From: an uncultured Planctomycetota bacterium
GTDB taxonomy: Bacteria > Planctomycetota > PLA2 > JAEUHO01
Assembly (NCBI GenBank): GCA_963752285.1
Contig: CAVVXN010000005.1
Coordinates: 1,248,001 to 1,312,000 of the forward strand
DNA: 64,000 nucleotides
Direction of reading: 5' to 3'
Below the pieces are notes generated by a model. That model was not told the origin of the DNA. It searched no databases and worked only from the letters and a program-made list of their open reading frames with translations. Every line of letters begins with the position of its first letter. Positions within the stretch are counted from its first letter, which is position 1. The position numbers and the translations under genes are program-made. Below, piece by piece: positions 11,411 to 56,652 of this stretch.

Positions 11411-12208
11411 CTAGGCGAGGGGGGGGACAGTCCCCCGGGCCCCGGACGGCGCCCCCGCTTCCGGGACGGCGACCGACTCCCCCCGCCCCGCCGGCCCGAC
11501 CCCCCGCCCCCGCCCCCGGCCTCGGGCGCGGGGGGCCCCCACGAGCGCGTCCGCCCGGACCGCCAGGCGCTCGAGCCGGGCCTCCACGTCCCGCCGGATC
11601 CGCTCGAGGCCCGCGCGGTCCACGTCCCGGGGCACGAAGATCGGTCCGTCCGCGAGAGAGACGGCCCGGGACCAGGGGCGCGGGACGAGGAAGCGGGCCC
11701 ACGACCGCTCGAGCACGGCGACCGGGAGGTACGACGTGCGGACGAGCCAGAGCGGCCGGCCGCTCTCCCGGGCGAGGTGGAGCACCCCGGGCTTCAGGAC
11801 GCGGGCCGGGGGCCGGGGGCCGTCCGAAACGACCGCGACCGAGGCCTGCTCGGAGGCGAGGAGGCGGTGCAGCGAGAGGAGGGCCGCCGCGCCCCGCCGG
11901 GCGGACGACCCCCGGATCGCGCGGCGGAAGCCGACGCCCTCGGCCGCCGCCGCCGCGAGGCCGCCGTCCCGGCTGGCGCTCGCGAGGACGTACGTCCGGC
12001 GCCGGACGTTCCAGCGCGACAGGTAGCCCATCGTGTAGAGGAAGTCCTGGTGCCAGCACGCGAAGATCGCCGGCTCGCGCGTCCGGAGCAGGGCGAGGAG
12101 CCGGGGGTCGTGCCGGAAGAGGAACCCCGAGAACATGAACGCCCGGTAGATCCGGAGGAGCAAGCCGGCGAGCGTCCGCGCCGTCGGGGTGTCGAGCATG
12201 CGCTTCAC
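11411..12208 (-). CDS. DUF374 / lysophospholipid acyltransferase-family protein
   Basis: IFACWHQ, LASASRDG, IRGSS, DGPRPP, PGVLHLA, SWARFLVPRPWS motifs. Confidence 0.85.
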   Translation of the reverse strand: MKRMLDTPTARTLAGLLLRIYRAFMFSGFLFRHDPRLLALLRTREPAIFACWHQDFLYTMGYLSRWNVRRRTYVLASASRDGGLAAAAAEGVGFRRAIRGSSARRGAAALLSLHRLLASEQASVAVVSDGPRPPARVLKPGVLHLARESGRPLWLVRTSYLPVAVLERSWARFLVPRPWSRAVSLADGPIFVPRDVDRAGLERIRRDVEARLERLAVRADALVGAPRARGRGRGRGVGPAGRGESVAVPEAGAPSGARGTVPPLA

Positions 12209-12293
12209 CGGCGCCGCCTCCTCCCCGCCGAACGCGAGGTCGCCCCGCGCCGCCCCCCGGGCCGGCCCGCCGGCCGGGACCGTCCCCCGGGCG

Positions 12294-12857
12294 TCAACGG
12301 TTCACGCGCTCCTGGAACTCGCCCGTCACGGTGCTCACGCGGATCGTGTCTCCCGTGTTGATGTGCGCGGGCACCTTGACCACGAAACCCGTCTCGAGCG
12401 TCGCGGGCTTCAGCACGTTGCTCACCGTGTTCCCCTTCGCCGCGGGCTCCGTGTCGGTGATCACGAGGTCCACGTTCGCGGGCAGCTCCAGGCCGATCGG
12501 AATCCCCTCGTGGAAGGTGACCTCGACCTCCGCGTTGGGCTTCACGAAGCTCATGGCGTCGCCGAGCACGTCCCTCGGCAGCGAGAACTGCTCGAACGTC
12601 TGCTGGTCCATGAAGACCGGGCCGGTGCTGGGGTCGTCGTAGAGGTACTCCACCTTCTTCTTGTCGAGCCAGGCCCGCTCGACGTTCGCGGTGGACTGGA
12701 ACCGATCCGACATGTGGACCCCGGACTTCACGTTCCGGAGCTTCACCTGGACGAAGGCGCGCCAGTTCCCGGGCGTGCGGTGATCGACCTCGACGGCTTG
12801 CCACAGCTCGCCCTTGATGATCAGGATGCTCCCCTTGCGGATGTCGTTGGCCTGCAT
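12294..12857 (-). CDS. efp: Elongation factor P
   Basis: MQANDIRKG, HRTPGNWRAFVQVKLRN, EYLY, FMDQQTFEQ, GNTVSNVLKPATLETG, VPAHINTGDTIRV; GGAG RBS. Confidence 0.95.
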   Translation of the reverse strand: MQANDIRKGSILIIKGELWQAVEVDHRTPGNWRAFVQVKLRNVKSGVHMSDRFQSTANVERAWLDKKKVEYLYDDPSTGPVFMDQQTFEQFSLPRDVLGDAMSFVKPNAEVEVTFHEGIPIGLELPANVDLVITDTEPAAKGNTVSNVLKPATLETGFVVKVPAHINTGDTIRVSTVTGEFQERVNR

Positions 12858-12998
12858 GTGCGGCTCCGGCGGCGATCGGGTCCGAACCGACAAGCGTACC
12901 GCGGGCCCGTCCGGGTGGCCCGGTTCCCCGAGCGCCGCGGGCGGGATCCGCGGCGGCGGCCAGGTGGGTGCCGACGGACCCGGCTCGAGCCGGCGGCG

Positions 12999-15900
12999 TC
13001 AGCGGCGCGGGGCCCGGGAGAGGTCGCTCGACCGGCTCGTGTACTCCACGGTGATCTCGCGGAGCCGCGGTGTCCGCTTCCAGGCGTTCTCGAAGATCAG
13101 GTCGCTCGGGTCCTCGCGCCCGGTCAGGAGGTCCTGCGGCCGGAAGGCCCCCGGTCGGTAGATGAAGTACACGCGAAGCTCCAGCGTGTCCGACTCCCGG
13201 GCCAACGGGTTCGCGGACTCCGGGTCGTCGAACACGTAGAGCGCGTTCGGGACCCCGGTCGAGCCGAGGCCCCCGACCGGCGCGGTGCGGACGCCCGAGC
13301 CCCGCAGGTCGATCAGCTGGTCGGAGTCCCAGGGGACCTGTGGGCTCAGGCGCGCCATCACGAGGAGGTCGAGCAGGCTGGCGGTGTCGCCGCCGCCACC
13401 GCGATGGCGCGAGGCCGGATCGTCGCCGGTCGCGGTGCTGGCCAGGTCCTCCTTCCACGTGACCCGGTGCCAGAAACACGATCGCACGCGCTCGCCGATC
13501 TCCAGGCGCGACCCCTCCGGATGATCGTGCACCCCCGAGAACGACTCCGCGTCCTGGGTCCGGCGACCCAGATACCGGTCCCAGTACCGGAACGGCTGGA
13601 AGAAGACGGGGTCGCCGTCGTCGTGGTCGATCACGTCGGTTCCGAACCGACCGCGCAGGAGGCCGCGGCCCCGGACCGCCTCGTCCTTGTCGAGCGCCTG
13701 CGGCAGGATCAGCGACTCGTCGCTGCGTCGCGTGTAGTGGATCAGCTCCTCGCTGCCACCGGACACGATCCGTACGAGCCCTTCGCGAGGCCACGACTCG
13801 TCGAGCTTCGCCGTGCCGATCGAGTTCGAGTCCCTCGTCACGTTCCCCTGCAGGTACGTCACGGGGACGTCGGTCACGAAGACCCCGTACCCGCCGTACG
13901 CGTGGGGACGAGGGAACGTGCCCATGACGCCGCGCTCGCAGTTCTCCAGCACCACGGTGTCGGGGTCTTCCTGTCGGACGCTCCGGTAGAGGATCTGCTC
14001 GCCGTCCAGGCTCACGAGGCCGCCCTCGGCGTGGTAGCCGGGGACCCCGTCGAGGCTCGCAGGCCTCGGGTAGACCCGGAGCTCGATGTCGCGCTCCGTC
14101 TCGTTCACGCCGTCCTTCTTCGCGACGAAGAGCCGCGGGGTCGCAAGGAGGCCGTGCCGGAACACGTGGAGCTCGTCGAGGAAGGCCGTCGCTACGCTGC
14201 TGTTCGCCACGGTGCTCTCGGCGAACTCCATCTGGGGCGCGAACTCGTCGGGCAGCTCGCCGCAGGGAAACCGGAGCAGGCGCGGGTGCCCGCGCGTCTC
14301 GAGCGCGAGCTGGTTCAGATCGAGGTCGGGTTGCGCCGCGACGCGGAACGGCGGGAAGTCGTCGAGGGCGACCCACCGCGACAGCGGGTCCGCCCAGCGG
14401 ATGCGGCCGCGGTACAGGCGCGGCTCCTTCGCGGCCCCGTCGGTGAGCGTCACGTAGTCGTTGCGGCCGGGCGGATGGCCGCCCCGGTCGATCTGCGTCC
14501 GTCCGGGGAGCTGGTCCTCCGTGGGCTGCCCCACGTAGGCGGGCCCCTCGTCCACGCGGAAGCACGGCAGGATGCGGGCCTCCGGCTGCCCGACCGAGGG
14601 GCTCTCGTGGCGCCGGTCGTCGGTGCCGCGAACGCCGCGGAACAGCTGGTGGACCGCGCCGTGGACCGCGCCCCACGCGGGCCACGGGTAGTCGGAGTCG
14701 CTCGCGGCGCGCGCGCCGCTCTCGGCGGGCTCGTACGTCCCCGGGTGGTTGACGGGCAGGAGCGGCTCGAGCGGGTAGCCGCCGCCGTCTGGCGTCTCCG
14801 AGTCCCCGCCGCCGGAGCCGTCCGGCGCCGGGTCGTCGTCGGGAACGTCCGACTTCTCGCCCGGCGGGGGCACGTCCGAGTCGCCGCCCTTCGTGGTGGC
14901 GCTCTCCGAACCCGACTGGGCGTCCTGCTGCACGACGACCTGGACGACGCCGCTCGTCGTGCCCGTGAAGGCGCGCGGGAAGAAGATGCTGCCGATGGCG
15001 TACACGAGGTAGTCGGGGGCCACGAAGTAGATCTGGCCGACGGTGCTCGACTTGCGGTCCACCTCTCCGTAGCGGACCACCTCGACCGGGTCCGTGTCCG
15101 TCGGCAGACCGACCGCCACCAGCGCCTCGTCGCCGCCCTCGTCGGTCCCGAGCTCGAACTGTCCGTTCTCGTTCCAGTCCCGTCCGTAGCGGCCGAGGAT
15201 GCCCAGCGCCGTGGCATCGGTGGGATCGAGATAGTCGTCCCCGCCCCCGCCGCCCTGGGCGGGCACGGAGATGGGAACGATGTACGCGTTCAGGTACAGC
15301 TCCGCCGCGGAGGGCGGTCCCCCGCCGTTTCCCTGCGTCGTGGCGCGCGCCCACGTGGTCAAGAAGTAGTTCTGCGTGGGCGCCCACGAGCCGCGCTCGA
15401 GGCTTCGGCGGGCGATGTGGATCGTGTCCGAGCTGCTCGCGTCGCGCGTGTAGTACACGAACTCCCAGCCGCCGATCGTGAAGCCGTCCGCGGACGTGAT
15501 GTTCGGCCCCAGGATCGCCTCGCTGCCCATCAGGGCGATGCCGCTGGTCCCGAACGCGTCGCCCGCCTGCGTCGCGTCCTCGCCCCAGAGGGGCAGGACC
15601 TTGGCGTCGAAGGTGGTCTGGTTCGGGCTGACTCCCTCGAACTGGTAGCTCGTCTTCCCGGCGACGTAGGTGGTCGTGTCGTCCTGGTTCGAGACGCGGA
15701 GGGCGCTCCACCGCCCCAGCGTCACGGGCAGGCTCGCGCCGCCCTGCATGACGTCCGTCAGGAGCGCGGCGGAGTAGCCGAGCTGCCGCACCGCCGTCCC
15801 GGTCGGCCAGGCCCGCCCCGTCCCGCGCGCCTTCCCGACGTCGTTCGTGCCGCGCGCCCCGCGGTAGCAGTCGCGGAAGGCGTCGGAGGTGAGCGTGTTG

Positions 15901-18461
15901 TACTCGACGACCTCGTCGCCGATGACGATCGCGCCGTACGGCGCGAACCCGTCCGTGCTCTCGACCTGGATCTCGTCCTGGTCCTCCGTGACGCTGGCCG
16001 TCAGGTACGAGAAGGTCCGCCGCTGACCGACGGACACCCCGTCCACCCACATCTCCATCTGGGACGGGTCCTCGCCCCGCGCCTCGACCTGGATGTGGTA
16101 CCAGTTGCCCGCCCGGTAGCCGAGACGCTCCAGCGGGACGAAGACCTCCGCGCCCCGGCCCTCCTGGGTGTCGGCGCATACGCGGAAGACGAGCTCCCGG
16201 CCCTTCTCGCCGTCCGTCACGAAGATCGCGTACCGGTCGCGGAACTTGTCCACCGCGCAGTCGAACGCCGTCCAGTCGGCGTCCGACCAGCACTGCCACC
16301 AGAAGGAAAGGCTGAACGGCTGGACGAAGCGATCCTCCTTGCCCGCGAAGATGCCGTTCGTGCCCTTCACGTACGCGCCGTAGTAGTCGGTGCGCCAGCC
16401 CTCGGTGAACAGGCTCGAGTCGAAGTTGTTGTCGTACGCTCGGATCGTGTTCCCCGGCATGCGGATCCGCGCGGGCTCGAGCCGCACGTCCCCGTACTCC
16501 TTTCCCTCGTCGCTCCGCTTGGACGACGGATACGCGCCGTACAGGATCGCCTGGTAGTCGCGCAGCGCGGGCTGGACGTTCGCCGTGGCCTCGTTGCGGA
16601 AGTTCACCCCCCGGGGGTACGACGCGACCCACTTCGCGCCGGATCCCTGCGTGAGCCGGCGCTCGAAGTCGTCCTGCGAATCGAGCGTCCAGGCGCTCTT
16701 GCCGTCCGAGCCGATCTCGACGACCTCGCGGATGGTCGCGCTCGCCTCGTGCTCGCCGCCCCGGTTGTTGACCGTCACGCGCGCCTCGAGGTGGTAGACG
16801 TCGAGGGTCTTGAAGCAGAACGGCGCGGTGCCGAAGGCGAGCCGGCTGCTGTGCGGGTTCACCGCGTTCGTGTAGATGGCCGCCCGGTGCGCCCGCTTGA
16901 TCACCTCCTGGTCCTCGAGCCGCGAGAGCCAGGTCCCCAAGTCCTCCACGCCCCGGAAGGGGCCGCGGGTGCGTTCGTGCGTCGTCTCGTCGAGGACGAC
17001 CTGGCCCTTGCGCTCCTCGACGATCCGTCCCGCGAGGTCCCACGCCAGCGGCGGCGTCACGATGTTGTCGGGCGTGTCGGCGTTCAAGTAGTGCAGGTTC
17101 GCCATGCACGCGTACAGGACCTCGCGCGACGCCGTGTTGATGTCGATCGGGTACGGCGCCCACGCCGAGATGACGGTCTCGCCGCCCGCGAGCTTCACGG
17201 GCGCCGCGCCGCCCGAGAGGGACGAGCCCCCCTCCTCGGTCCCGCGCGCCGACTCGACGCTGTTCGCGAGCATCAACGAGCGGTCGAGCTGGGCGCCCTC
17301 CGCGTCTCCCACCCGCTCGACGACCGAGTAGAGCGTGGTGAGCCCGTCCGAGAGCCGGACGATCGTGCCCGGGTTCAGGTAGGAGGTCGTGCCCGTCGGG
17401 TTCTGCTGGTCCTTCAGGTCCACCTGGTCGGGCTCGGTCGCCTGCGCGCCCGACGGGAGCTCGTTCGCCACGACCTGCGGCGCGAGCCAGCCCTCGCCCG
17501 TCTCCCGCCGGCTCCAGACGGTCAGGAAGCGCGAGACCTGGTCGAGCCGCGCGCGGTCCAGGGCGCCGCCCGCGCCCCAGCCGGCGATGGACCGCAGGTC
17601 CTCGAGGTTCTGGAACCACGTCAGATCCCCGGGCCGAGCGGCGATCAGGTGCGTCGCGAGCTTCCACGCCGAGTAGTCGATCACCGGCGTGTTCTGCTTG
17701 TGCGAGTCCGCCGACCCGTTGTCGCCGATGGGCGTCTGCTGCAGCGCCCCCCGTTCGCATCCCTTGAAGCTCGAGCCGTCGAACGAGGTGTAGCGGATGA
17801 CCTCGCCGTCGATGCGGATCCAGCCGCCGTCGCGCGGGAACCCCACGAGCGAGGGCGCGACGTCGCTGACCACGTCCGTCACGGTGATGTCGGACGCCGA
17901 GCCGTCGATGTCCTCGGCGAGGAGCGCGCCGCCGAGCAGGTTGCCGAGGAGGTACGGCGACGCGCCGGTCACGTTCACGCGGGCGTTCGCGTCCTCGACC
18001 AGGCCCGTCCAGATGCTGCCGGTGTCGTCGTTCGTGGGCCCGAGCCCGCGCGCGTCGAGCGCCTGCACGTGCGAGAGCTCCTGCGTGTCGTACGAGAGCC
18101 CGCGTCGCCACAGCTCGTCGAAGCGGTGCCGGAAGTCCGGCCCGAGGGTGATCTCGTCCAGGGCGTCCACGGACGGGTCCGACTCCACGCCCCGTTCGCC
18201 GGCGTCCCACCGGATCTGCTCCTGGGAGGGATGCGTGGTCCCGAGCGCCTGCTTCATGGCCTCGAGGAGCACGTTCGCCTCGAAGTACGCGCGGTCCCGG
18301 GCGCCCTCGCTCGTCGTGCGCTTGTGCCCCTGGAGCATCGAGAGCGCGAAGGGGACCGCGACGAGGACCAGCGTCACGAGCACCGTGATCACCATGAGCA
18401 TCGCGATGCCGCGCTCGTGCGCGCGAGAAGGGGTGCGGTGGCCGGCTCGCCGATCGATCAT
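12999..18461 (-). CDS. Giant (~1820 aa) GspK/PilX-like minor pseudopilin with a LamG-like domain and repeated beta modules
   Basis: Class III signal AHERG|IAMLMVITVLVTLVLVAVPF without Glu5; GspK-like motifs VEDANARVNV, FQNLEDLRSIAG, FLTVWS, IDINTASREVL, GPFRGVEDL; LamG-like SLSFWW...NWYHIQV...MWVDG. Start ATG 18461 after GGAGGAG. Confidence 0.75.
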   Translation of the reverse strand: MIDRRAGHRTPSRAHERGIAMLMVITVLVTLVLVAVPFALSMLQGHKRTTSEGARDRAYFEANVLLEAMKQALGTTHPSQEQIRWDAGERGVESDPSVDALDEITLGPDFRHRFDELWRRGLSYDTQELSHVQALDARGLGPTNDDTGSIWTGLVEDANARVNVTGASPYLLGNLLGGALLAEDIDGSASDITVTDVVSDVAPSLVGFPRDGGWIRIDGEVIRYTSFDGSSFKGCERGALQQTPIGDNGSADSHKQNTPVIDYSAWKLATHLIAARPGDLTWFQNLEDLRSIAGWGAGGALDRARLDQVSRFLTVWSRRETGEGWLAPQVVANELPSGAQATEPDQVDLKDQQNPTGTTSYLNPGTIVRLSDGLTTLYSVVERVGDAEGAQLDRSLMLANSVESARGTEEGGSSLSGGAAPVKLAGGETVISAWAPYPIDINTASREVLYACMANLHYLNADTPDNIVTPPLAWDLAGRIVEERKGQVVLDETTHERTRGPFRGVEDLGTWLSRLEDQEVIKRAHRAAIYTNAVNPHSSRLAFGTAPFCFKTLDVYHLEARVTVNNRGGEHEASATIREVVEIGSDGKSAWTLDSQDDFERRLTQGSGAKWVASYPRGVNFRNEATANVQPALRDYQAILYGAYPSSKRSDEGKEYGDVRLEPARIRMPGNTIRAYDNNFDSSLFTEGWRTDYYGAYVKGTNGIFAGKEDRFVQPFSLSFWWQCWSDADWTAFDCAVDKFRDRYAIFVTDGEKGRELVFRVCADTQEGRGAEVFVPLERLGYRAGNWYHIQVEARGEDPSQMEMWVDGVSVGQRRTFSYLTASVTEDQDEIQVESTDGFAPYGAIVIGDEVVEYNTLTSDAFRDCYRGARGTNDVGKARGTGRAWPTGTAVRQLGYSAALLTDVMQGGASLPVTLGRWSALRVSNQDDTTTYVAGKTSYQFEGVSPNQTTFDAKVLPLWGEDATQAGDAFGTSGIALMGSEAILGPNITSADGFTIGGWEFVYYTRDASSSDTIHIARRSLERGSWAPTQNYFLTTWARATTQGNGGGPPSAAELYLNAYIVPISVPAQGGGGGDDYLDPTDATALGILGRYGRDWNENGQFELGTDEGGDEALVAVGLPTDTDPVEVVRYGEVDRKSSTVGQIYFVAPDYLVYAIGSIFFPRAFTGTTSGVVQVVVQQDAQSGSESATTKGGDSDVPPPGEKSDVPDDDPAPDGSGGGDSETPDGGGYPLEPLLPVNHPGTYEPAESGARAASDSDYPWPAWGAVHGAVHQLFRGVRGTDDRRHESPSVGQPEARILPCFRVDEGPAYVGQPTEDQLPGRTQIDRGGHPPGRNDYVTLTDGAAKEPRLYRGRIRWADPLSRWVALDDFPPFRVAAQPDLDLNQLALETRGHPRLLRFPCGELPDEFAPQMEFAESTVANSSVATAFLDELHVFRHGLLATPRLFVAKKDGVNETERDIELRVYPRPASLDGVPGYHAEGGLVSLDGEQILYRSVRQEDPDTVVLENCERGVMGTFPRPHAYGGYGVFVTDVPVTYLQGNVTRDSNSIGTAKLDESWPREGLVRIVSGGSEELIHYTRRSDESLILPQALDKDEAVRGRGLLRGRFGTDVIDHDDGDPVFFQPFRYWDRYLGRRTQDAESFSGVHDHPEGSRLEIGERVRSCFWHRVTWKEDLASTATGDDPASRHRGGGGDTASLLDLLVMARLSPQVPWDSDQLIDLRGSGVRTAPVGGLGSTGVPNALYVFDDPESANPLARESDTLELRVYFIYRPGAFRPQDLLTGREDPSDLIFENAWKRTPRLREITVEYTSRSSDLSRAPRR

Positions 18462-18462
18462 C

Positions 18463-19809
18463 TCACTTCTCCTCCCGCGGCCCGAAGGTCGCGATCGAGA
18501 ACCCGACGCCACGGAGCGTCGCCGCCCCCCAAACGTCCTCCGGCCAGCGGAGCTCGAGCTCGAGTTCTGCACGGGGCCCGGACCCCGGCTCCGCGAGGTC
18601 CACGACGACCTCCCGTCCGCTCCCGTCTTCCACGCGCGCGCGACCCCGCACGCGTCCGTCCTGGCAAATCGCGAGCTCAAGACCGGGGGGACCCACGACC
18701 CCCACGCTCACGGCCGACGCGTCCACGACGAGACCCGCGGGACGCCATGCCACCCGCGCGGTCCGGGACGGCCCGGGCCCCGGCTCGAGACGCAGCGACG
18801 CGCCGTGGCGGTGCGCGCGTCCCTCGGTCACGCGCCAGCGACGCGCCGAGACCCAGGCGAGCTCGCCCGGGGGACCGCCGCCGAGCGTGACCCGCGAGAG
18901 CGGGGCGAGGCCCGGCGGCTCGGGGGTCTCCCCGCCCGCCGGCACGTCGCCGCCGATCGCGCGGTCGCCCGCGCCGGCCCACCGGACCTCCGGCCCGACG
19001 TCCGGCAGGAACGTCGCCTCGGCCCGCGCGGAGAGCCGGACCGCCGCCCGCCGCCCGTCCGGACCCGCGATCCCGACCCCCGCCTCGCCCCGCTCGAGGA
19101 GGAGGTCCCCCGCGCCGGCGACGCGAACCTCCAAGGGCACCGACCCCGCGGAGAGCCAGGCGTGCGGCCCCTCGAGCACGAGCCGGAGCGAGGAACCGCC
19201 GCGCTCGACCCGAAGGCCGTCGGACGGACCGAGGAGCACGGTCCCGCCTCCCTCGAGGCGGAGCACCGTCTCGGTACCCGCCGCGCTCCGGACGCGCGTC
19301 CCGGCGGCGAGGCGCGCGTCGCGCGTGCTCTCGACCCGGCCTGCGCCCGCGTCGATCCGCTCGAGCGCGTCGAGGCGGAGCCCCGCGCGCGCCTCGGAGC
19401 CCGAGAGGAAGATCCACCCCGCCCCCAGCAGCAGGACGACGCTCGCGGCGAGCGCGAGCCGGCGCCGGGCCGGCGTGGACCGGACCGCGGCGGCCACCGG
19501 AGCCTCGCGCCGGTCGATTCGCGGAGCCGGGGGCTCGGGAACCGCCCGCGGCGGTGACCCGAGCGCCTCGTGCGCGCGCCACGCCGCGAGGGCGGCGGCG
19601 TGCACGGCGGGCGGGAGCGGGACCGGCTCGGCGTGCGCCTCGGCGTCGAGGACCTCGGCGAGCGCCCGGCGGAGCTCCGGGTCGTCGAGCGCCGTCGGAT
19701 CGAGCAGCCGCTCCGGGCCACCCGAGACCGGGTCCGGGAGCGCCGGATCGGGCGACCGGGGATCCGGGTGGTGCCGAGGCTCGGGGGGGCGGCCGGGGAA
19801 GGGGGACAT
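18463..19809 (-). CDS. Putative FecR-like anti-sigma factor
   Basis: Follows an ECF sigma; cytoplasmic N-terminus, TM RRRLALAASVVLLLGAGWIFL, then FecR-like LAAGTRVRSAAGTETVLRLEGGGTVLLGP; GGAG RBS. Confidence 0.65.
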   Translation of the reverse strand: MSPFPGRPPEPRHHPDPRSPDPALPDPVSGGPERLLDPTALDDPELRRALAEVLDAEAHAEPVPLPPAVHAAALAAWRAHEALGSPPRAVPEPPAPRIDRREAPVAAAVRSTPARRRLALAASVVLLLGAGWIFLSGSEARAGLRLDALERIDAGAGRVESTRDARLAAGTRVRSAAGTETVLRLEGGGTVLLGPSDGLRVERGGSSLRLVLEGPHAWLSAGSVPLEVRVAGAGDLLLERGEAGVGIAGPDGRRAAVRLSARAEATFLPDVGPEVRWAGAGDRAIGGDVPAGGETPEPPGLAPLSRVTLGGGPPGELAWVSARRWRVTEGRAHRHGASLRLEPGPGPSRTARVAWRPAGLVVDASAVSVGVVGPPGLELAICQDGRVRGRARVEDGSGREVVVDLAEPGSGPRAELELELRWPEDVWGAATLRGVGFSIATFGPREEK

Positions 19810-19901
19810 GGCTCCGTCTCCGTGTAGCCCGCGGGCGGCCCGTTTCTGGCAGGACGAAGGGCCCGGGAGGACGGGGGGGCCCGCGGCGCGTCCGCGACCC
19901 T

Positions 19902-20483
19902 TCAGGAGCCCTCGAGCAGCTCGGCCAGGTCCGGAGCCACCTCGGCGAGCCGCCGACGCGCCCGGGAGAGGAGCGAGGGGACGCTCTCGGGCGCCACGTC
20001 GAACGCCACCGCGAGCGACGCCGTGTCGAGGCCCTCGAGGTAGCGGAGCGAGAGCACGTGGCGGTCCCGGGGCTCGAGCCGGAGGAGCGCCGCCTCGATC
20101 GACGACCGGACCTCGGGGTCCGGCCCGGCACGCGTCGCGGGATCGTCCGGGTCGCCCGAAAGCCTCCGCTCGGGCCTCGCGCGGCGCAGCCGGCGCCCCA
20201 CGGCGGTCCGGCAGATCACCCCGATCCAGGTGCCGAACCGCCACGCGGGGTCGTAGCGACGGAGCAGCCGGCGGTCGTCCCGGAGGAGCGAGAGGAAGAC
20301 CTCGGCGACGACCTCGTCCACGTCGGCGGCGTCGCCGCGTCCGGTCCTCCGCTCGAGCATGCGGCGGACGAGTCCGTGGATCCACGGCCCGTGGCGATCG
20401 ACGAAGCACGCCCACGCCTCGGCGTCGCCCGCCACGAGCCGCCGGACGAGGTCCGCGTCGGACGGTGTCCCTTCGTCAGTCAC
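19902..20483 (-). CDS. ECF-type sigma-70 factor
   Basis: SDADLVRRLVAGDAEAW, DVDEVVAEVFL, FGTWI, ALLRLEPRDRHVLSLRYLEGL, SLLSRARRRL. Confidence 0.9.
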   Translation of the reverse strand: MTDEGTPSDADLVRRLVAGDAEAWACFVDRHGPWIHGLVRRMLERRTGRGDAADVDEVVAEVFLSLLRDDRRLLRRYDPAWRFGTWIGVICRTAVGRRLRRARPERRLSGDPDDPATRAGPDPEVRSSIEAALLRLEPRDRHVLSLRYLEGLDTASLAVAFDVAPESVPSLLSRARRRLAEVAPDLAELLEGS

Positions 20484-21771
20484 CTTCCGTCACGACGGGC
20501 GCCGGGAGCGGCGGCGCCGGCCGGGTGGCGCGCGCGAGGAAGAGCAGGGCCCAGGCCGTGTCCACGAGGTCGCTCGCCTCGTAGTCGGACTGTCCGAGCA
20601 TGCCCGTGGACCAGTGCCCGTCGGCGGCCTGCTTCCCCACGAGGTGCGTCGCGCCCTCGACGTACCAGTCGTGCCGCCCGATCAGGTCGCGGCCGCCGAG
20701 CACGGCGGCGCGTTCGAGCCCGTAGAGGAAGTAGTAGTGCCAGTTCGCCGCGGACGCGCCGGGGTTGCGCTCGACCGTCCAGTTCTTGTCGAGCCACGCG
20801 AACCCGTCCTGGGCCGCGCGCTGCACGGCGTGCTCGATCTGCGTGGTGTAGCCGTCCCAGCGCTTGGGCCGGAGCAGCGCGTCGTTCGCGATCGCGAGGA
20901 GCCCGATCCCGGAGGTCGTCATGCTGCCCGACGGCACGTACGGCTCCATCAGGTAGGACCAGCCTCGTGCGCGGTCGCCCGAGTCGATCGCGTAGGGGCT
21001 CGCGCCCGGATCGGGGCTCGGGAGGATGCGCATCACCTTCGGGCCTTCCTTCTCCTGGCGTTCGAGCGCGGTCTGGATGCCTCGCAGGAAGACGGCAGCG
21101 GGCACGTGCGCCCCGCAGTCGCGCGCGGCGCGGAGACCGAGGTACGCGTACTGCGAGTTCGACATGTCGTCGCGGTACGCCGGGTATCCCCACGTGGACG
21201 TCTCGGGCTTCCGCAGCCGAACGAGCCAGTCCGCGAGCTCCTGCACCCAGGTCTGGACCTCGGGCGGCAGGTTGCACGGGTTGTGCGCCTTGTGACCGGG
21301 CCGCGTCGTGCCCGGCCCCGCGTGCTTGTCGTCCTCCTCCCCCTGCCAGTACCGGGTGATGAACATCAGGAGGACGCCGGTGTCGTACGTGGCGCGGCTC
21401 CCCGCCGGGCCGAGCAACGCGTCCCGCGTCTTCACGTACTCGTAGACCTTGTCCACGGACGCGTCGCCGCGCCGGTCGCCCGAGGCGAGCAGGGCGAGGC
21501 CCATCAGCGCCGTCACGCCCACCTCGTGCGTCATCTCGCCGCGCGCGTGGAGCCCGCCGAAGGCCCCGTTGTCCTTCTCGACCGACCGCAGCCACGCCGC
21601 CCCGCGCGAGATCGCCTCGTTGATCCGCTTCTGGAGCTCGGCGTCCGGCACGCCGGGACGGGCGACGGCGGGCTTCGCCTTCCCCTTCGGCTTCTCGTCC
21701 CCGGAGGCGCCCCCCGTGGCCACACCGACGACCACGAGACAGAGGACCCAGAACGGGAGGAGTCGGCGCAT
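20476..21771 (-). CDS. Secreted prenyltransferase/squalene-oxidase-repeat (alpha-alpha barrel) protein
   Basis: Signal peptide; AISRGAAWL, TALMGLALLASG, WGY...DMSNSQYAYLGL, GWSY...SMTTSG, YYFLYGLER, HDWYVEGA..LVGKQAADGHW, DTAWALLFL. Confidence 0.8.
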   Translation of the reverse strand: MRRLLPFWVLCLVVVGVATGGASGDEKPKGKAKPAVARPGVPDAELQKRINEAISRGAAWLRSVEKDNGAFGGLHARGEMTHEVGVTALMGLALLASGDRRGDASVDKVYEYVKTRDALLGPAGSRATYDTGVLLMFITRYWQGEEDDKHAGPGTTRPGHKAHNPCNLPPEVQTWVQELADWLVRLRKPETSTWGYPAYRDDMSNSQYAYLGLRAARDCGAHVPAAVFLRGIQTALERQEKEGPKVMRILPSPDPGASPYAIDSGDRARGWSYLMEPYVPSGSMTTSGIGLLAIANDALLRPKRWDGYTTQIEHAVQRAAQDGFAWLDKNWTVERNPGASAANWHYYFLYGLERAAVLGGRDLIGRHDWYVEGATHLVGKQAADGHWSTGMLGQSDYEASDLVDTAWALLFLARATRPAPPLPAPVVTEGD

Positions 21772-21983
21772 GGGGCTCCCGGACGAGACGGGACCGTGAC
21801 GCCCGGGCGCGGGCCGCTCGGCCCCCGGGCTCGGACCGCCGGCGATCATACCCCGCTCGACTCGCGCCCCGGCCAACACCCGTCGCCCGGCGGGCGTACG
21901 CATCCAGGAGCCCGATCCTCTCCGCCGGCGGCTACAGTGGCCCCGGCATGACCGGTTCGCCCCCCACGTCTCCGAGGGACCGC

Positions 21984-22637
21984 ATGGCGACGTCCGTCAC
22001 GACCGGTGCGATGGTCACGCCCTGGAACGCCGCGGCCGTCCGTCGCGCCCGGCAGGCCCAGGACGACGCGCGCGCTCGCCGCCGCGCCGAGGACGCCGGC
22101 CTCGCCGAACGCGCGCGGGGCGGCGACCCCGAGGCCTTCCGCGAGCTCGTGGAGCGCTACCAGCGCAAGGTGTACTGGGTCGCGTACGACATCCTCCTCG
22201 ACACCGAGGAGGCGCGGGACGTGACCCAGGAGACGTTCATCCGCGTGCACGCGGCGCTCGACTCGTTCGACACCCGGCGCGACTTCCTCAACTGGGTGTA
22301 CCGCATCGCGAGGAACCTCGCGATCGACGCGTTCCGGCGCCGGCACCGCCGCGCGGCCCCCGTCGAAGACCTCGAGGCCGTGGCCGACGTGCGGGCGACG
22401 TCGGGCGTGGAGGACGCGGAGCTCCGCAAACGCGTCGCCGAGGCGCTCGAGGACCTTCCCGTCGAGTACCGCCTCGCCCTCACCCTGCGCGAGTTCCACG
22501 GGATGTCGCCCCGCGAGATCGCCGCCCTGACGGACTGCACCTACCCCACCGCGCGCTGGCGGCTCCATCGGGCTCGCGCCCTCTTCCGCAAGGCCTGGGA
22601 ACGACGATTCGGCCCCATGGCCGGACAGGACTCCTGA
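21984..22637 (+). CDS. ECF sigma factor (RpoE/SigW-like)
   Basis: GDPEAFRELVERYQ, EARDVTQETFIR, FLNWVYRIARNLAID, LPVEYRLALTLREFHGMSPREIA, RLHRAR. Alternative start at 21948. Confidence 0.92.
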   Translation: MATSVTTGAMVTPWNAAAVRRARQAQDDARARRRAEDAGLAERARGGDPEAFRELVERYQRKVYWVAYDILLDTEEARDVTQETFIRVHAALDSFDTRRDFLNWVYRIARNLAIDAFRRRHRRAAPVEDLEAVADVRATSGVEDAELRKRVAEALEDLPVEYRLALTLREFHGMSPREIAALTDCTYPTARWRLHRARALFRKAWERRFGPMAGQDS

Positions 22638-23263
22638 TGGAACCGAATCTGCCGATGCCCCTCGAATGCCGCGACGTGGACGCCCTCTTCACCCGTGCGC
22701 GGCGCGCCGGAGACGACGAAGCGCCGCGCGACCTCGTGCGGTCGCTCCACGACCACCTCGCCGCCTGCGCCCGTTGCGCCGCCGAGCACGGCGGCCGGCT
22801 CGCCGGCTTGGAGAGCACGCAGGCACTCCGCGAGCGATCCCTCCCGAACGGGGTCCTCGACGACCTCTGGGAGAACGTGAGCCGTCGGCTCCCCGAGGCG
22901 CCGGTCGGCGGCGCGATGTCCCTCGCCTTCCTGGACGCGCCGCGCGCGCTGGGCGTGTGGCGCGCGGTGGCCGTGGCCGCGACCACGTTGCTCGTCGTCG
23001 GGACCGGGCTGCTGGTGTCGGGCGTCCGGCCCGGCGAGGGCACGCCGACGGCCGAGCGCCTGCACGCGGTCCCCGAGAACCTGCTCCACGTCTGGGACGC
23101 GAGCCTGGGCGGCGGGCCCCGCGGTGAGGACCTCCGGATCTGGCCCGGCGCGTCCACCCGCGGCTACGGCCCGTTCTACCGAGTCCTGGGCCCCGACGGG
23201 GAGGTGCCGATCGGCGACCGTGCCCAGCCCGCGAGCGCGGACGTCATCGCCCCCTGGGAGTGA
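22637..23263 (+). CDS. Zinc-binding (ZAS) transmembrane anti-sigma factor
   Basis: HLAACARC (HxxxCxxC) plus an upstream Cys; one TM helix; TGATG overlap with the sigma gene. Confidence 0.85.
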   Translation: MEPNLPMPLECRDVDALFTRARRAGDDEAPRDLVRSLHDHLAACARCAAEHGGRLAGLESTQALRERSLPNGVLDDLWENVSRRLPEAPVGGAMSLAFLDAPRALGVWRAVAVAATTLLVVGTGLLVSGVRPGEGTPTAERLHAVPENLLHVWDASLGGGPRGEDLRIWPGASTRGYGPFYRVLGPDGEVPIGDRAQPASADVIAPWE

Positions 23264-23267
23264 CGCC

Positions 23268-24332
23268 GTGCGGCGGGGGTCCCGTGCAACGGCCGCGCTC
23301 GCGCTCGGCCTGCTCCTCGTTCCGTGGGGGTTCGTCGCCGGCGGCGAGCACACCGACGTGGACGCGCTGCTCACGATGGCGCGACGCGCGGCGCCCGGAA
23401 TCGTGCGCGTGCAGTGGCGACCCTACCGGGGCGCCGACGCCCCCATCGAGCGCCACGCGGTGGTCGTGGACACGGACGGCTGGCTGCTCATGGCCGGGCC
23501 GCCGGTGTCCGAGCACGGGACGCTCGCGGCCTCGTTCTCCGACGGGCGCGCCGCGCGGGCGCGCGTGTGGGCGACCGACGCGGGCAGCGCGCTGACGCTC
23601 CTCCACGTCCCGCTCTCCGGGCTCGTGCCGATCCCGTTTCGCGGCGTCACCCAGGACGACGGCGAGGAGGTTCCCGACCGCTTCCCTCCGGGCGAGACGG
23701 TGTTCATGGTGACGGCGGAGGGCGCGCTCGCACGCGGCGCGCGCCGCGCGAACCACCGCGCCTTCCGCCTGCTCGACCCGCTCGACGGCGAGGGCCATGA
23801 GGTCACGGGCCTCGACGAGGCATCCCTCTCCGTCGTGACGACGGACCTCGGCGCGCCGTGGCTCGACGAGGAGGGCCGCCTGGTCGGGCTGCTCCTCGGC
23901 GCGGACGTCGAGGTTCCGGATGCGGCGCACCCGCCGGACGAGAACATCCGGCTGCGCCCCTCCGTCGTGGCGGCGTATGCCGTGCCGAGCGCGGTGGCGG
24001 CCATCGAATGGCCCCTCCTCCGCGACCAACGCGCGGTGGACCGCGCGGCGCTCGGCGTGCACACCCGCCCGCTCGACCTCGCGCTGACGCACCACGTCTG
24101 CCCGGACTGTCGCGGCTGGATCGTCGCGGAGGTGCTGCCGGACGGGCCGGCGGCGCGCGCCGGCATCGAGGCGAACGACATCCTCCGCGGGCTCGCCGGC
24201 CGGCCGCTCGCGCCCGGAGCCCGACTCGCCGACGCGCTCCTCCCCTACCGACCCGGCACGGAGATCCGCGTGGACGTCCTCCGGGGCGGCGAGACGAAGG
24301 TCGTCGAGGTCGTGCTCGGCTCGGTCCGCTGA
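23268..24332 (+). CDS. HtrA/DegP-like trypsin-fold plus PDZ protein with degenerate catalytic triad
   Basis: Signal-like N-terminus; PGIVRV, VVVDTDGWLL, GAPWLDEEGRLVGL, AYAVPS, LGV, PDZ VLPDGPAARAGIEANDIL. No TNxHV or GNSGG. Confidence 0.75.
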   Translation: MRRGSRATAALALGLLLVPWGFVAGGEHTDVDALLTMARRAAPGIVRVQWRPYRGADAPIERHAVVVDTDGWLLMAGPPVSEHGTLAASFSDGRAARARVWATDAGSALTLLHVPLSGLVPIPFRGVTQDDGEEVPDRFPPGETVFMVTAEGALARGARRANHRAFRLLDPLDGEGHEVTGLDEASLSVVTTDLGAPWLDEEGRLVGLLLGADVEVPDAAHPPDENIRLRPSVVAAYAVPSAVAAIEWPLLRDQRAVDRAALGVHTRPLDLALTHHVCPDCRGWIVAEVLPDGPAARAGIEANDILRGLAGRPLAPGARLADALLPYRPGTEIRVDVLRGGETKVVEVVLGSVR

Positions 24333-47413: not shown

Positions 47414-48580
47414 CTAGCGGCCGAAGCGGGTGATTCCCGGAATCTCGCGGCCGGAAGACGGCCTCGGCGCGGCCTCGGCGTACGTCGCCTCGATCGTGCT
47501 CACGCCCTTCGTGATGCCCCTCAGGGCGAGCTTCAGCTCGTCCGGGCTGTCGGCGGCCGCCATCGCGTCCTCGACATCGATGAGCCCGTCCCGGACCAAT
47601 CCGACCAGCGACTGGTTGAAGGTCTGGGTCCCGTAGTACTCGTACCCCTCCTCGAGCGCCTCGGGCAGCTCGCGGGTCCGACCCTCGACGATCATCTCCT
47701 TCACCGTCGGCGTGCCGATCAGGACCTCGACGGCCGGTACGCGACCCGCGGTCGTGCGGCGCGTGATCAAGCGCTGGCTCACGACACCCTCGAGTACGAG
47801 GCCGAGCTGGAGGCGGACGGTCGCGTGCTGGTACGGGGGGAAGAAGGAGATGATCCGCTCCACGGTCTGGACGGCGTTCACCGTGTGCAGGGTGGCCAGC
47901 ACCAGGTGTCCCGTCTCGGCGGCCATGAGTGCCGCGGAGACGGTCTCGAGGTCCCGCATCTCCCCCACCAGGATGACGTCGGGCGTCTGCCGGACCACGG
48001 CCTTCAGCGCCGTGTGGTAGTCCTCGGTGTCGATCCCGATCTCGCGCTGCGTGATCACGCTGCGCTCGTCCTTGAAGACGAACTCGATCGGGTCCTCGAT
48101 GGTGACGACGTGCCGCTGCGTGCAGCGGTTCACGTGGGCGATCATGGCGGCGAGGCTCGTGCTCTTGCCCGAACCCGCGACGCCGGTCACCAAGACCAGC
48201 CCGCGCTGGAGCAGCGCGAGCCGTTGGAGCGGACCCGCGGGGAGGTGGAGGTCCTCCATGCTCGGCACGCTCTCTTTGACGTACCGGAACACGAAGGCCA
48301 TCCGCCGGCGTTGCTGGAGCACGTTCGTGCGGAACCGGCCCACGCCCGGCACGACGATCGCCGTGTCCTTCTCGTGCACGTTCCTGAACGACTGGATGTC
48401 CTCGGGCTCGAGGATCGACTCGAGCAGGTTCTGGGCCTGCTCCTCGGTGAAGAGGTCGTCCGAGAGGAACCGCACCTTGCCCTCCACGCGGACCGCGGGG
48501 CGGTGCCCCGTGCGGAGGATCAGGTCGGAGGCCTGCTCCTTCACCATCTCGCGGAAGTAGGCGAGGACTTCGTCGTTCAT
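47414..48580 (-). CDS. pilT: PilT/PilU-family type IV pilus retraction ATPase
   Basis: ASDLIL, GRFRTN, GVAGSGKST, TIEDPIE, QREIG.DT, PDVILVGEMRD, AETGHLVLATLHT, QTFNQSL. Confidence 0.92.
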   Translation of the reverse strand: MNDEVLAYFREMVKEQASDLILRTGHRPAVRVEGKVRFLSDDLFTEEQAQNLLESILEPEDIQSFRNVHEKDTAIVVPGVGRFRTNVLQQRRRMAFVFRYVKESVPSMEDLHLPAGPLQRLALLQRGLVLVTGVAGSGKSTSLAAMIAHVNRCTQRHVVTIEDPIEFVFKDERSVITQREIGIDTEDYHTALKAVVRQTPDVILVGEMRDLETVSAALMAAETGHLVLATLHTVNAVQTVERIISFFPPYQHATVRLQLGLVLEGVVSQRLITRRTTAGRVPAVEVLIGTPTVKEMIVEGRTRELPEALEEGYEYYGTQTFNQSLVGLVRDGLIDVEDAMAAADSPDELKLALRGITKGVSTIEATYAEAAPRPSSGREIPGITRFGR

Positions 48581-49665
48581 GCTCCCGTCCGTTCCGCCCC
48601 CCTTTCCTCCTCCGGCGAGGCGGGCCCCAGCCGGCGCGGGGGCTCGGGCGGCGCGGGGGCGGACCCGAGCGTCCGCCCGATCGCCGCGAGGAGGGCCGGG
48701 AGGCCCTCCCCCGTGACGGCGGAGATGGGGTGCACCTCCCTATCGGCCGAGCGGGAGAGGCGGCTCAAGGCCGCCGCCCGGTCGCCCGGGGCGAGCGCGT
48801 CCACCTTCGTGCCGACCACGATCTCGGGCCGCTCGGCGAGCCCGTGCCCGTGGGCCCCGAGCTCGGCCCGGACCTGCCGCCACGCCCGCCCCGGGTCGTC
48901 CTCGCTCGGCGTGGCGAGGTCCACGAGATGCACCAGGACGCGGGTCCGCTCGACGTGCCGGAGGAACCGATGGCCGAGGCCGTGGCCCTCGTGGGCGCCC
49001 TCGATCAGGCCCGGCAGGTCGGCGAGCACCACGCGGCGGCCGTCGCCCAGGTCGAGGATCCCGAGGTGAGGCGAGAGCGTCGTGAAGGGCCACGCGCCGA
49101 TCCTCGGCCGCGCGCGCGTGAGGCGCGAGAGCAGGGTGCTCTTGCCGGCGTTCGGGAGCCCGACGAGGCCGACGTCCGCGAGGAGCCGGAGCTCCAGGCG
49201 CAGGCGCCGCTCGCGCCCCTTCTCGCCGAGCTCCCGGCGCATCGGACGCTGCTCCGTCGCGGAGGCGAACCGGGCGTTGCCCCGCCCCCCGTTCCCGCCC
49301 CGGGCGGCGCGCCAGCGCCGGCCGGGCGTGGCGAGGTCCACCAGCCGGCGCCGGGTCGCGAGGTCGTAGACGGAGGTGCCCACGGGAACGCGGACCACCT
49401 TGTCGCGACCGCTCCGTCCCTGGCACTTGTCGGGCCCGCCCCGCTCGCCGTCCTCGGCGGCGGCGAGGTGGATCTCTTCCATGTCGCCGAACGTCGAGAG
49501 CTCGGGGTCCGCGACCAGGTACACGTCGCCGCCCCGGCCGCCGTCCCCGCCGGCGGGGCCACCCCGGGGGACACGGGCCTCGCGCCTCCAGGCGACGATG
49601 CCGTCGCCTCCCGCGCCCGACCGGACGAGCAGGTCGCGCTCGTCTGCGTATCGTTCGTCCGCCAT
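48577..49665 (-). CDS. obgE: GTPase ObgE/CgtA
   Basis: GGPAGGDGGRGG, LELRLLADVGLVGLPNAGKST, PFTTL.P.LG, ADLPGLIEGAH.G.GLG..FL.HVER, TKVD. Confidence 0.95.
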   Translation of the reverse strand: MADERYADERDLLVRSGAGGDGIVAWRREARVPRGGPAGGDGGRGGDVYLVADPELSTFGDMEEIHLAAAEDGERGGPDKCQGRSGRDKVVRVPVGTSVYDLATRRRLVDLATPGRRWRAARGGNGGRGNARFASATEQRPMRRELGEKGRERRLRLELRLLADVGLVGLPNAGKSTLLSRLTRARPRIGAWPFTTLSPHLGILDLGDGRRVVLADLPGLIEGAHEGHGLGHRFLRHVERTRVLVHLVDLATPSEDDPGRAWRQVRAELGAHGHGLAERPEIVVGTKVDALAPGDRAAALSRLSRSADREVHPISAVTGEGLPALLAAIGRTLGSAPAPPEPPRRLGPASPEEERGAERTGA

Positions 49666-49708
49666 GGCGGGGCGCGACGGGCGGGGTGGCCCGGCGCGTC
49701 CTTCGCCG

Positions 49709-49960
49709 TCACGCCCGGACGGCGGGACGGACGTGGACGGTGCGGTTCGGACGGTACTCCACCACGCCCTCGGTGAGCGCGAAGAGGGTGAAGTCCCGAC
49801 CCATGCCGACGTTGTGTCCGGGACGAAGACGCGACCCCACCTGACGCACCAGGATGTTTCCCGCAGCGACCCGTTCACCGGCGAAGCGCTTCACGCCGCG
49901 GTACTGCGGGTTGCTGTCGCGGCCGTTGCGCGTCGAGCCCTGGCCCTTCTTGTGTGCCAT
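49709..49960 (-). CDS. rpmA: 50S ribosomal protein L27
   Basis: [24 protein letters not shown]. Confidence 0.98.
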
Positions 49961-49973
49961 GTCGCGCTCCCCT

Positions 49974-50285
49974 CTACCCGGCGATGCCGACGACGCGCAC
50001 GTCCGTGTAGCGCTGGCGGTGACCCTGCTTCTTCCGATAGCCCTTGCGGCGCTTCTTCTTGAAGACGATCACCTTCTTGTCCTTGACCTCGCCGAGGACG
50101 GTGGCCTCGACCTTCACGCCCTCGACGACGGGCGCGCCGGCGCGAATCCCGTCGTCGCCCGACACGAGGAGGACGCGGTCGAACACGACGGTCTCCCCGG
50201 GGCGCTCGGGCCGGAGGTCGAGGCGGACCCGCACCCCCGGCGCTACGAAGTACTGCCTTCCGCGATCGCTGATGACGGCGTACAT
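49974..50285 (-). CDS. rplU: 50S ribosomal protein L21
   Basis: [12 protein letters not shown]...[21 protein letters not shown]. Confidence 0.97.
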
Positions 50286-50406
50286 GGTTCGGTTCCCTGG
50301 GCGCCGGGCTCGTTTCGCGCCCACGCGGTCGAGCGAAGCAGGGTAGCGCCCCCCGCGGGGGCTCCCAAGCCCATTCCCGGCCCCGCGGGGCCCCGCGGGC
50401 CTCCCC

Positions 50407-52716: not shown

Positions 52717-52752
52717 GGCGGCGGAGGCTACCACCCGCCCGCGGGAACGAAA

Positions 52753-52783
52753 GTCGCCCCGCGGGCAGATCCCGCGGGGCGAC
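52753..52783 (-). terminator. Intrinsic terminator after the secretin gene
   Basis: gtcgccccgcggg-cagat-cccgcggggcgac (13-bp stem) followed on the minus strand by TTTCGTT. Confidence 0.75.
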
Positions 52784-52810
52784 GGCACATCGGGGTTCGC
52801 CGGTCTCGGA

Positions 52811-56639: not shown

Positions 56640-56652
56640 GGCGTCCTCCTTG

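Follow-up and report, generated by a model that had tools for sequence, protein, structure and literature searches.

A giant, predicted GspK-type tip pilin displaced from its operon to a place behind an anti-sigma-like gene in one order of Planctomycetota

K-type pilins, represented by GspK and XcpX of type II secretion systems (T2SS; 3CI0 chain K, 5VTM chain X), are required to start filaments. Here, we analyze a gene for a very large protein predicted to belong to this type, found on a 64,000-nt stretch of the genome of an uncultured Planctomycetota bacterium (contig CAVVXN010000005.1, positions 1,248,001 to 1,312,000), which is referred to in full as the window. The protein has in common with GspK and XcpX a class III leader lacking Glu5, a long N-terminal helix, and a pilin sheet with inserted alpha-domains (216-233 residues superpose), and its ancestral operon provides H, I, and J partners. 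It differs from them in being six times longer, in having two barrels within the core, and in carrying about 1,230 residues behind it. In addition, its sequence scores below cut-off and its gene is displaced in the window's order. The parent operon itself departs from a T2SS in its H-K-J-I order, its PilM/N fusion, its TPR protein, and its lack of ATPase and secretin genes.

Pilins with additional modules have been described. Modular pilins, including PilB and PilC of S. sanguinis, CofB of enterotoxigenic E. coli (ETEC), and ComZ of T. thermophilus, include concanavalin-A-like lectin modules and are proposed to sit at the filament tip (bioRxiv 10.1101/2021.01.27.428410). The same survey names GspK as modular, required the N-terminal motif IPR012902, and gives 860 residues as its most extreme case. 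In contrast, the giant protein has no Pfam N_methyl match, reaches 1,820 residues, and contains phage-tail-like barrels. Verru_Chthon cassette protein A (TIGR02600, 1,296 positions) is likewise very large, has a K/PilX-like start, and comes from the same superphylum. This family is a catalogued precedent for giant K-type pilins. It matches only the N-terminal helix in three of eight relatives of the giant protein (E 0.002-0.017; 13-16 bits against a cut-off of 332 bits) and has no match in the window's protein.

Precedents also exist for the regulatory setting. In P. aeruginosa, the tip components encoded by fimU-pilVWXY1Y2E are controlled by AlgZ/R apart from the machinery, and pilus assembly depends on this regulator (PMC4064291). 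There a two-component system governs a whole tip set, whereas in the window's order the arrangement involves one subunit and, likely, a sigma factor of the extracytoplasmic function (ECF) class. FecI-FecR signalling has the same sequence of an ECF gene, a gene for an anti-sigma/FecR-like protein with a single transmembrane (TM) segment, and an envelope gene (PMC7826278). The present locus differs in that the downstream gene encodes a pilin, not a TonB-dependent receptor, and in that the anti-sigma domain is eroded in the window's family. The Akkermansia locus MUL2 (Amuc_1098-1102), tied to glycan capture (PMC13174399; PMC12418764), encodes a long PilM-like protein (608-position model) which is the best match of the PilM/N fusion over about 430 residues, far below cut-off. 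Unlike the parent operon, MUL2 has an archaeal-type pilin and, as described, no G-H-K-J-I set (PMC13174399). The literature searched, which was thin on subscription journals, gave no description of the giant family, its parent operon, or the present arrangement. The move of a single K gene to a conserved, promoter-like site is specific and unusual, and it is not a new stand-alone system.

Our best reading, which we hold to be somewhat better than an even bet, is that the giant protein is a displaced GspK-type tip pilin encoded behind an anti-sigma-like gene and a promoter-like motif, its supply likely being set by the neighbouring sigma factor, ECF-B. The genes and site concerned are as follows (coordinates are positions within the window; coordinates prefixed C1, C2, or C5 refer to contigs of the window's genome):

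12999..18461, minus strand: predicted giant GspK-type minor pilin, 1,820 residues (P0001), single copy in the genome
18463..19809, minus strand: anti-sigma-like single-TM protein, 448 residues, with a degenerate anti-sigma domain inside and a FecR-like domain outside
19821..19853, minus strand: promoter-like site, -10-like half kept (GGCTACAC), -35-like half degenerate, score 2.9
19902..20483, minus strand: ECF-B sigma factor, 193 residues, Sigma70_r2 and r4_2 above the Pfam cut-off
20476..21771, minus strand: secreted alpha-barrel (squalene-cyclase-repeat-like) protein, 431 residues, NCBIfam cyclase families at E 2.8e-4, far under cut-off

The identity of the giant protein was assessed from its leader and from a structural model. 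Two features carry the assignment:

18408..18461, minus strand: class III leader, residues 1-18 ending in Gly, with a PilD cut predicted from sequence between G18 and I19
16701..18407, minus strand: GspK core in the model, residues 19-587, made of a long helix, a pilin sheet, and two alpha-domains, with two barrel interruptions

The leader reads RAHERG before the predicted cut and IAMLMVI after it, so that Met stands at +5; an earlier note on this DNA had described a class III signal peptide lacking Glu5. A credible leader was matched in 56 of 60 relatives, with Gly (55) or Ala (1) at -1 and Glu5 in none; the remaining four comprise two mis-hits of the leader pattern and two proteins without a match. 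The giant protein has only one hydrophobic stretch, and a gene for PilD is present in the same genome (C5:2117432-2118559). A model of residues 19-920 was built from 60 sequences (predicted local distance difference test, pLDDT, 89; predicted template modelling score, pTM, 0.83). When it was aligned, independently of chain order, to 48,161 solved chains, the top two hits were XcpX (5VTM_X; Z 12.9, root-mean-square deviation (rmsd) 3.1, 216 of 259 residues aligned) and GspK (3CI0_K; Z 12.5, rmsd 3.3, 233 of 280 aligned). These alignments cover model residues 29-569. The giant family also matches ordinary planctomycete GspKs in profile comparison (probability 96.5).

Several results weigh against this assignment. 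The giant protein is sub-threshold in both Pfam T2SSK (PF03934; E 0.062, 14.1 bits against a cut-off of 24.2) and NCBIfam GspK (NF037980; E 0.2, 11.2 bits against 130), and its best relative scores 42.6 bits for GspK, still below cut-off. With either half as query, Foldseek searches of the PDB returned no hit at E 0.001 and failed to detect GspK, probably due to the two barrels breaking up the core. In a sequence search of solved structures, XcpX appeared only at E 0.29, and the C-terminal half yielded nothing useful. On balance, the protein is predicted from its fold to be a GspK-type minor pilin; by score and by its length, compared with about 300 residues for the equivalog, it is not filed as the GspK equivalog of a T2SS. 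It likely caps the tip of a type IV filament, the other components of which are encoded at a distance of about 55 kb. A tip pilin of giant size, with a GspK core interrupted by inserts, is what the earlier note had led us to expect, and both points are borne out by the model, the GspK motifs being only sub-threshold in sequence. Its wording "GspK/PilX-like" stands in its first half, given the alpha-domains. PilX is a small pilin without alpha-domains, located beside pilY1, and a PilX-type (type IVa) identity is contradicted by the alpha-domains of the model and by the lack of a PilX Pfam match in the giant protein.

The remainder of the protein consists of barrels, a LamG domain, a linker, and a C-terminal domain:

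17670..17930, minus strand: beta-barrel repeat 1, residues 178-264, inserted in the first alpha-domain; repeat hidden Markov model (HMM) E 5e-23, PHROGs tail fibre E 0.0035
17151..17504, minus strand: second inserted beta-barrel, residues ~320-437, weakly like EF-Tu-type barrels (Z 6.2-6.5)
16020..16472, minus strand: LamG / concanavalin-A-like domain, residues ~664-814; agrin G2 at Z 9.5, rmsd 2.9, 108 aligned
15771..16019, minus strand: beta-barrel repeat, residues 815-897; 9IN6_M Z 10.1, 8VJH_A Z 9.8, 8RK3_o Z 9.5
14712..14963, minus strand: acidic Pro/Gly-rich linker, residues ~1167-1250, poorly conserved, pLDDT <50
13587..14108, minus strand: two beta-barrel repeats, residues 1452-1625; repeat HMM E 5e-11 and 7e-21, 8VJH_A Z 10.5, 8GTC_M Z 8.4
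13002..13586, minus strand: conserved C-terminal long-stranded beta domain, residues 1626-1820; Atlas lead to unnamed phage clusters at 0.90

An HMM made from the family finds four barrels in the giant protein (E 5e-11 to 5e-23). It misses the barrel at residues ~320-437, which is a fifth and more distant one. In structure, the barrels resemble those of phage tail-tip, baseplate, and capsid proteins (Z 8-10.5). The barrel at residues 815-897 matches PHROGs virion/baseplate families at E 2.5e-13 and 6.4e-13, and Pfam Rcc01698_C covers the C-terminal pair at E 0.009. The LamG fold of the model is accompanied by many further LG/pentraxin rows in the structure comparison, and Pfam Laminin_G_3 is found in relatives of the giant protein (E 5.5e-6 and 1.2e-7). 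The lectin-like and repeated modules proposed previously are thus present. The model of the C-terminal half is weaker (pLDDT 78, pTM 0.62), and structure comparison with it assigned no fold to residues ~915-1165 and 1626-1820.

The giant protein is widespread in the phylum. Its family, labelled hypothetical in databases, was matched at E <= 0.001 in 256 of 401 sampled Planctomycetota genomes, some matches being weak or partial, and is nearly or wholly absent from several families (e.g. 0/20 and 1/23 genomes). A total of 558 clusters at 50% identity score E <1e-30 to it, and the median length is 1,714 among the 56 called giant genes not cut by the end of a locus. Neighbouring genes were called for 60 relatives from the phylum match list. 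Outside the window's order, the gene lies in an operon that runs FHA, PilM/N fusion, PilO-like, TPR, GspG-like, GspH-like with LamG, giant K, GspJ-like, GspI-like, and continues with a secreted protein, a peptidyl-prolyl isomerase (PPIase), and ScpB; the PilO-like, H, J, and I names rest partly on position. In other families, the giant gene is flanked by H on its upstream side and by J or I on its downstream side in 36 of 40 loci; of the rest, two have J only, one stops at a contig end, and one has neither. A second search returned 80 loci, which may share genomes with the first set. In 61 of the 63 loci outside the order J is directly downstream, the other two ending first, and the other 17 show the window's context. 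The barrel repeat also occurs in 33 of 37 J-like relatives. On this basis, the giant protein represents K of an H-K-J-I operon that occurs across the phylum. The operon has also been broken independently elsewhere: among genomes of other families, two have K-J-I but lack the upstream half, and one has K on its own behind a TPR/peptidase gene (L057, L061, L088).

In the window's order, the K gene has left this operon. The window's genome retains the whole operon minus the giant gene at C5:1186804-1206414, about 55 kb off, where H and J overlap by 4 nt. A J orthologue is present in 37 of 40 genomes of the order, H abuts J in all 30 loci returned, and, within the window's genome, the barrel repeat occurs only in the giant K and the parent-operon J. 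In a fast, midpoint-rooted tree of 60 sequences, the 20 relocated K proteins group together with a support of 99, and in the sister families of this branch the gene is still part of the operon. K moved out of the operon once; K proteins are about 33% identical between two families of the order. The synteny check across Planctomycetota proposed in the earlier note gives a double answer: the gene is inside a pilin operon in other families and ECF-linked in the window's order. Its suggestion of a new four-gene system is not supported, since the giant gene belongs to the phylum-wide operon and the alpha-barrel and ECF genes are detachable. The lack of pilin neighbours holds locally, because of one ancient move and not because the system stands alone; the partner pilins are encoded some 42-61 kb ahead of the start of the window, and a separate pilM-N-O-Q cluster and pilT are located within it. 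At the head of the K-less operon (L091, L092), sequence inspection indicates two FHA-domain genes, and scpB is on the opposite strand.

At its present site, the giant gene is the last of four co-oriented genes, and gene calls and coordinates agree with the spacings claimed for them. The alpha-barrel and ECF-B genes overlap by 8 nt (20476-20483), 92 nt separate ECF-B from the TM gene, and the giant open reading frame, whose third-position GC is 0.89-0.99 along its length, begins with an ATG (18461) one base (18462) past the TM gene. This last coupling is not conserved, the distance from the anti-sigma stop to the leader Gly codon being 20-281 nt in 31 genomes. Upstream of the four genes lies another sigma factor locus, assigned from family searches:

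21948..24332, plus strand: divergent second module encoding ECF-A, its own anti-sigma, and a PDZ protease

ECF-B contains sigma regions 2 and 4 only. It has an orthologue in 38 of 40 genomes of the order and no clear one in 24 genomes of other families. A scenario in which the ECF-B module predates the K move was rejected, as none of these 24 genomes has a clear orthologue and the helix and motif considered below are missing from four related ECFs that occur in two genomes. The anti-sigma-like gene is directly upstream of the giant gene in all 35 genomes with that sequence. The position of ECF-B was assessed in 36 of the 40 genomes of the order: it precedes the anti-sigma-like and giant genes in 24 (two of them inferred across contig ends) and is inverted away in 12, where the inversion, which took place once, puts the ECF-A module in front of these two genes. 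The tree includes 10 of the inverted genomes, which make up a single nested branch (99/97); the window's layout is therefore ancestral. The alpha-barrel gene, missing from the locus in five genomes (L032, L033, L038, L044, L213), goes with ECF-B and not with the giant gene. In one genome (L210:7123-7696, G401), the ECF-B orthologue has an in-frame TGA, reflecting a broken gene or an assembly error, yet its locus has the top promoter-like score.

The TM protein is likely anti-sigma-like, a label that it receives through its orthologues. Those of the sister family match zf-HC2 above its cut-off (E 1.6e-5), RseA_N, and FecR slightly below its cut-off (E 6.6e-5), the profiles of the two families match with a probability of 94, and the Atlas lead is FecR at 0.88. 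The earlier description of the protein as FecR-like and membrane-spanning is upheld for the single TM segment; the FecR-like label comes from orthologues, and the window's own protein has no FecR or anti-sigma Pfam match. The erosion of the anti-sigma domain in the window's family, of which only the last two helices are recognizable in the window's protein, counts against our reading.

The regulatory evidence includes a motif, GTCCG-N18/19-TATAC, found by reading the gaps before the anti-sigma-like gene. A matrix was trained on 30 of 33 extracted upstream regions, leaving out the window's own and two cut too short. Leave-one-out scores were 9.2-25.0, compared with a 95th percentile of 5.8 and a maximum of 12.5 for 330 shuffles. 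When whole loci were rescanned, a score of at least 12 was found before the anti-sigma-like gene in 32 of 35 genomes of the order, and three genomes outside the training set scored 16-18.5 at the same position. Below 12 were L044 (11.4), the congener L031 (GTCCG kept, -10 half changed), and the window. The motif remains with the anti-sigma-like and K genes after the inversion (at least 12 in 10 of 11 inverted genomes, 11.4 in one). These two genes therefore appear to have a promoter of their own, whichever gene lies upstream. We consider it likely, judging from sequence, that this promoter-like motif is read by the neighbouring ECF-B. The ECF link is not peculiar to this genome; it is kept across the order together with the motif.

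The motif may also covary with the sigma factor. Where ECF-B has Gln in the sigma-4 recognition helix, GTCC is present in 26 of 26 genomes. Among six genomes without this Gln, three have GTACG and the window has lost the element. ECF-A is invariant at the equivalent helix position within the family, and in E. coli sigma-E this position faces the -35 element. This covariation is suggestive only: two of the six genomes without Gln retain GTCCG, and the six fall in two related groups.

Other observations also weigh against control by ECF-B. The site in the window reaches a score of only 2.9, and across the window's genome the motif shows no enrichment, with 9 hits at 14 or above compared with 17-204 for column-permuted matrices. 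Upstream of ECF-B's own operon it reaches at least 12 in only 2 of 26 barrel genes and 0 of 34 ECF-B entries, with four more sites at 9-11 where the barrel gene was lost; ECF sigmas usually autoregulate (PMC7826278). In addition, the -10 half is similar to the housekeeping TAnnAT element. The housekeeping -10-like elements of the genome (368 sites) follow the pattern TAnnAT, preceded by a GC-rich triplet; no clear -35 consensus accompanies them, and a sigma-70 consensus scan found 0 sites in 12000-23000.

Wider roles for the motif were considered. A shared role in controlling the parent operon was rejected, as scans of 772 kb, 1.19 Mb, and 118 kb gave 5, 11, and 3 hits, respectively, with no common position, and the genome's own pilus loci gave 0. 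A large regulon was rejected for the window's genome on the lack of enrichment. In five relatives, the exact pattern gave 11 matches compared with two for a reversed control. Four of these are at the anti-sigma-like gene, five are intergenic, and two are inside genes; four of the five intergenic ones precede probable secreted proteins, and none is common to several genomes. Exact matches at L230, L233, L238, and L239 stand before unrelated probable secreted proteins or lipoproteins in two relatives and may represent a small ECF-B regulon. In the portion of PMC7826278 covered, ECF250 is the sole group with a loosely similar motif.

Taken as a mechanism, our reading would run as follows. PilD would cut the giant prepilin between G18 and I19. 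The giant K, along with the GspH-, GspI-, and GspJ-like pilins of the parent operon, would then start a filament of the GspG-like pilin. The platform would comprise the PilM/N fusion and the PilO-like protein, the ATPase, platform protein, and secretin being encoded elsewhere. We regard it as highly probable that K joins the parent-operon pilins in this way. Together, the LamG domain and barrels may serve as a head for binding, with glycans or a surface as the most likely targets. That the LamG ligand is a glycan falls just short of an even chance; a LamG fold by itself reveals no ligand. The FecR-like protein would hold ECF-B until an envelope signal releases it, and the freed ECF-B would transcribe the anti-sigma and tip genes from the GTCCG/TATAC site; we lean slightly towards this regulatory sequence. 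The assignment of machinery meets two difficulties. First, genes for an ATPase and a secretin are lacking in the parent operon; judged by position and by similarity to PilM, it has L-like and M-like genes but no gspD, E, or F, which are located elsewhere in the genome. Second, the genome has several type IV systems and an ordinary GspK, so that the motor and pore serving the parent operon are ambiguous.

Either an external or a periplasmic location of the filament is compatible with the gene evidence. It is possible, though we rate it clearly below an even chance, that K caps a short, T2SS-like endopilus that moves large substrates through a secretin, the head being a substrate platform and not an adhesin. 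This alternative, modelled on a proposal for the Akkermansia MUL2 pilus-like locus, fits either regulatory reading. It draws on the GspK fold with its alpha-domains and on the G-H-K-J-I set with its GspG-like pilin. Likewise, the PilM/N fusion scores best against the Amuc_1101 family in four of four tested (E 1e-27 to 3.5e-40), in contrast to the window's ordinary PilM, which scores best against pilM, and Amuc_1098 is the top-scoring family for a secretin encoded about 13 kb from the operon. MUL2 has been linked to glycan attachment and uptake (PMC13174399), and a head of 1,800 residues may exceed what can pass a secretin. However, the Amuc scores, at 97-138 bits, fall far short of the family cut-offs (650 and 750), the description of MUL2 includes no GspK, and a canonical T2SS with a GspK of its own is separately present in the genome, as are three PilT-type ATPases, assigned by score.

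A rather unlikely alternative accepts the tip pilin and treats the ECF link as merely positional. The gene would have landed once behind an anti-sigma gene and be transcribed by the housekeeping sigma, GTCCG being an activator site or inherited sequence, while ECF-B and its anti-sigma serve something else. The inversion of ECF-B in 12 of 36 genomes suits this view, but a sigma factor works in trans and an inversion need not end control. The rarity of the motif before ECF-B's own operon and its lack of enrichment in the window's genome point the same way, as does a -10 half readable as TAnnnT in some genomes. K genes also stray in this genome, the ordinary GspK being an orphan far from its D-E-F-G-H-I-J cluster. 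Against it, both halves of the motif, with 18-19 nt between them, have been conserved in two families whose K proteins share about 33% identity. Upstream of the genome's housekeeping -10 elements, GTCC at the same distance shows no enrichment, and deviations of the motif cluster where the ECF-B helix changed.

It is improbable that the four genes form a self-contained device with the giant protein as a sensor, signalling to the FecR-like anti-sigma and replacing PilY1. The anti-sigma-like gene is never lost beside the giant gene (35 of 35) and a PilY1 (PF05567) search of the genome (89% complete) was empty, but that search lacked a positive control, 14 control genomes being empty too, the barrel and ECF genes come away, and the same giant architecture occurs in families without ECF-B, so it did not evolve for this sigma. 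FecR proteins relay signals from outer receptors. A signalling loop could be imagined in which a ligand is bound by the tip pilin with its phage-tail-type barrels and lectin domain, the condition of the tip is sensed in the periplasm by the FecR-like anti-sigma, and ECF-B, as a new ECF group with a GTCCG/TATAC promoter of its own, makes more tip protein; it would be a filament inducing its own assembly, with a type IV filament in place of a TonB receptor, and we think it a long shot.

Type IV filaments of Planctomycetota are nearly undescribed, and the giant family is widespread among them. The giant protein stretches the GspK scaffold to 1,800 residues and has a barrel in common with phage tail tips. 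Its relocation is a natural experiment in which only the initiating subunit left the operon in one lineage and now stands behind a dedicated, predictable promoter-like site. Because K-type pilins are needed for filament start, gating of filament building by a single subunit is conceivable; if our reading is true, envelope signals could likely switch it via one tip subunit. ECF-B and GTCCG/TATAC represent a candidate new ECF sigma-promoter pair.

The genome contains further filament and secretion genes, including several PilB/PilT/PilC genes, six secretins over cut-off, three PilT-type ATPases by score, and one PilD. The T2SS cluster D-E-F-G-H-I-J is at C5:1125222-1133468 and ends at J. The ordinary GspK, of 396 residues, is an orphan on C1 (L203:7713-8903) beside topoisomerase VI-like genes, making it the second displaced K gene in one genome. 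Within the window, positions 47414-58449 hold pilT (over the TIGR01420 cut-off) and a pilM-N-O-(gap)-Q cluster, with rne, rplU, rpmA, and obg-like genes between them. Between the parent operon and the giant gene, L204 (C5:1219036-1235776) encodes a secretin, a large TPR protein, ExbB/TolQ, three ExbD/TolR proteins, and a second secretin; the first secretin, about 13 kb from the parent operon, is the one whose best family match is Amuc_1098. A minor-pilin cluster at L209 (C2:337886-345832) has two PilX/K-like genes, a 1,376-residue prepilin, and a W/J-like gene, with no machinery alongside. Finally, a gene for elongation factor P (EF-P; window 12294-12857) lies directly downstream of the giant gene. 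It is found just 3' of the giant gene in 12 of the 13 window-family loci reaching that far (L031-L043; reversed in one) and in 0 sister-family loci.

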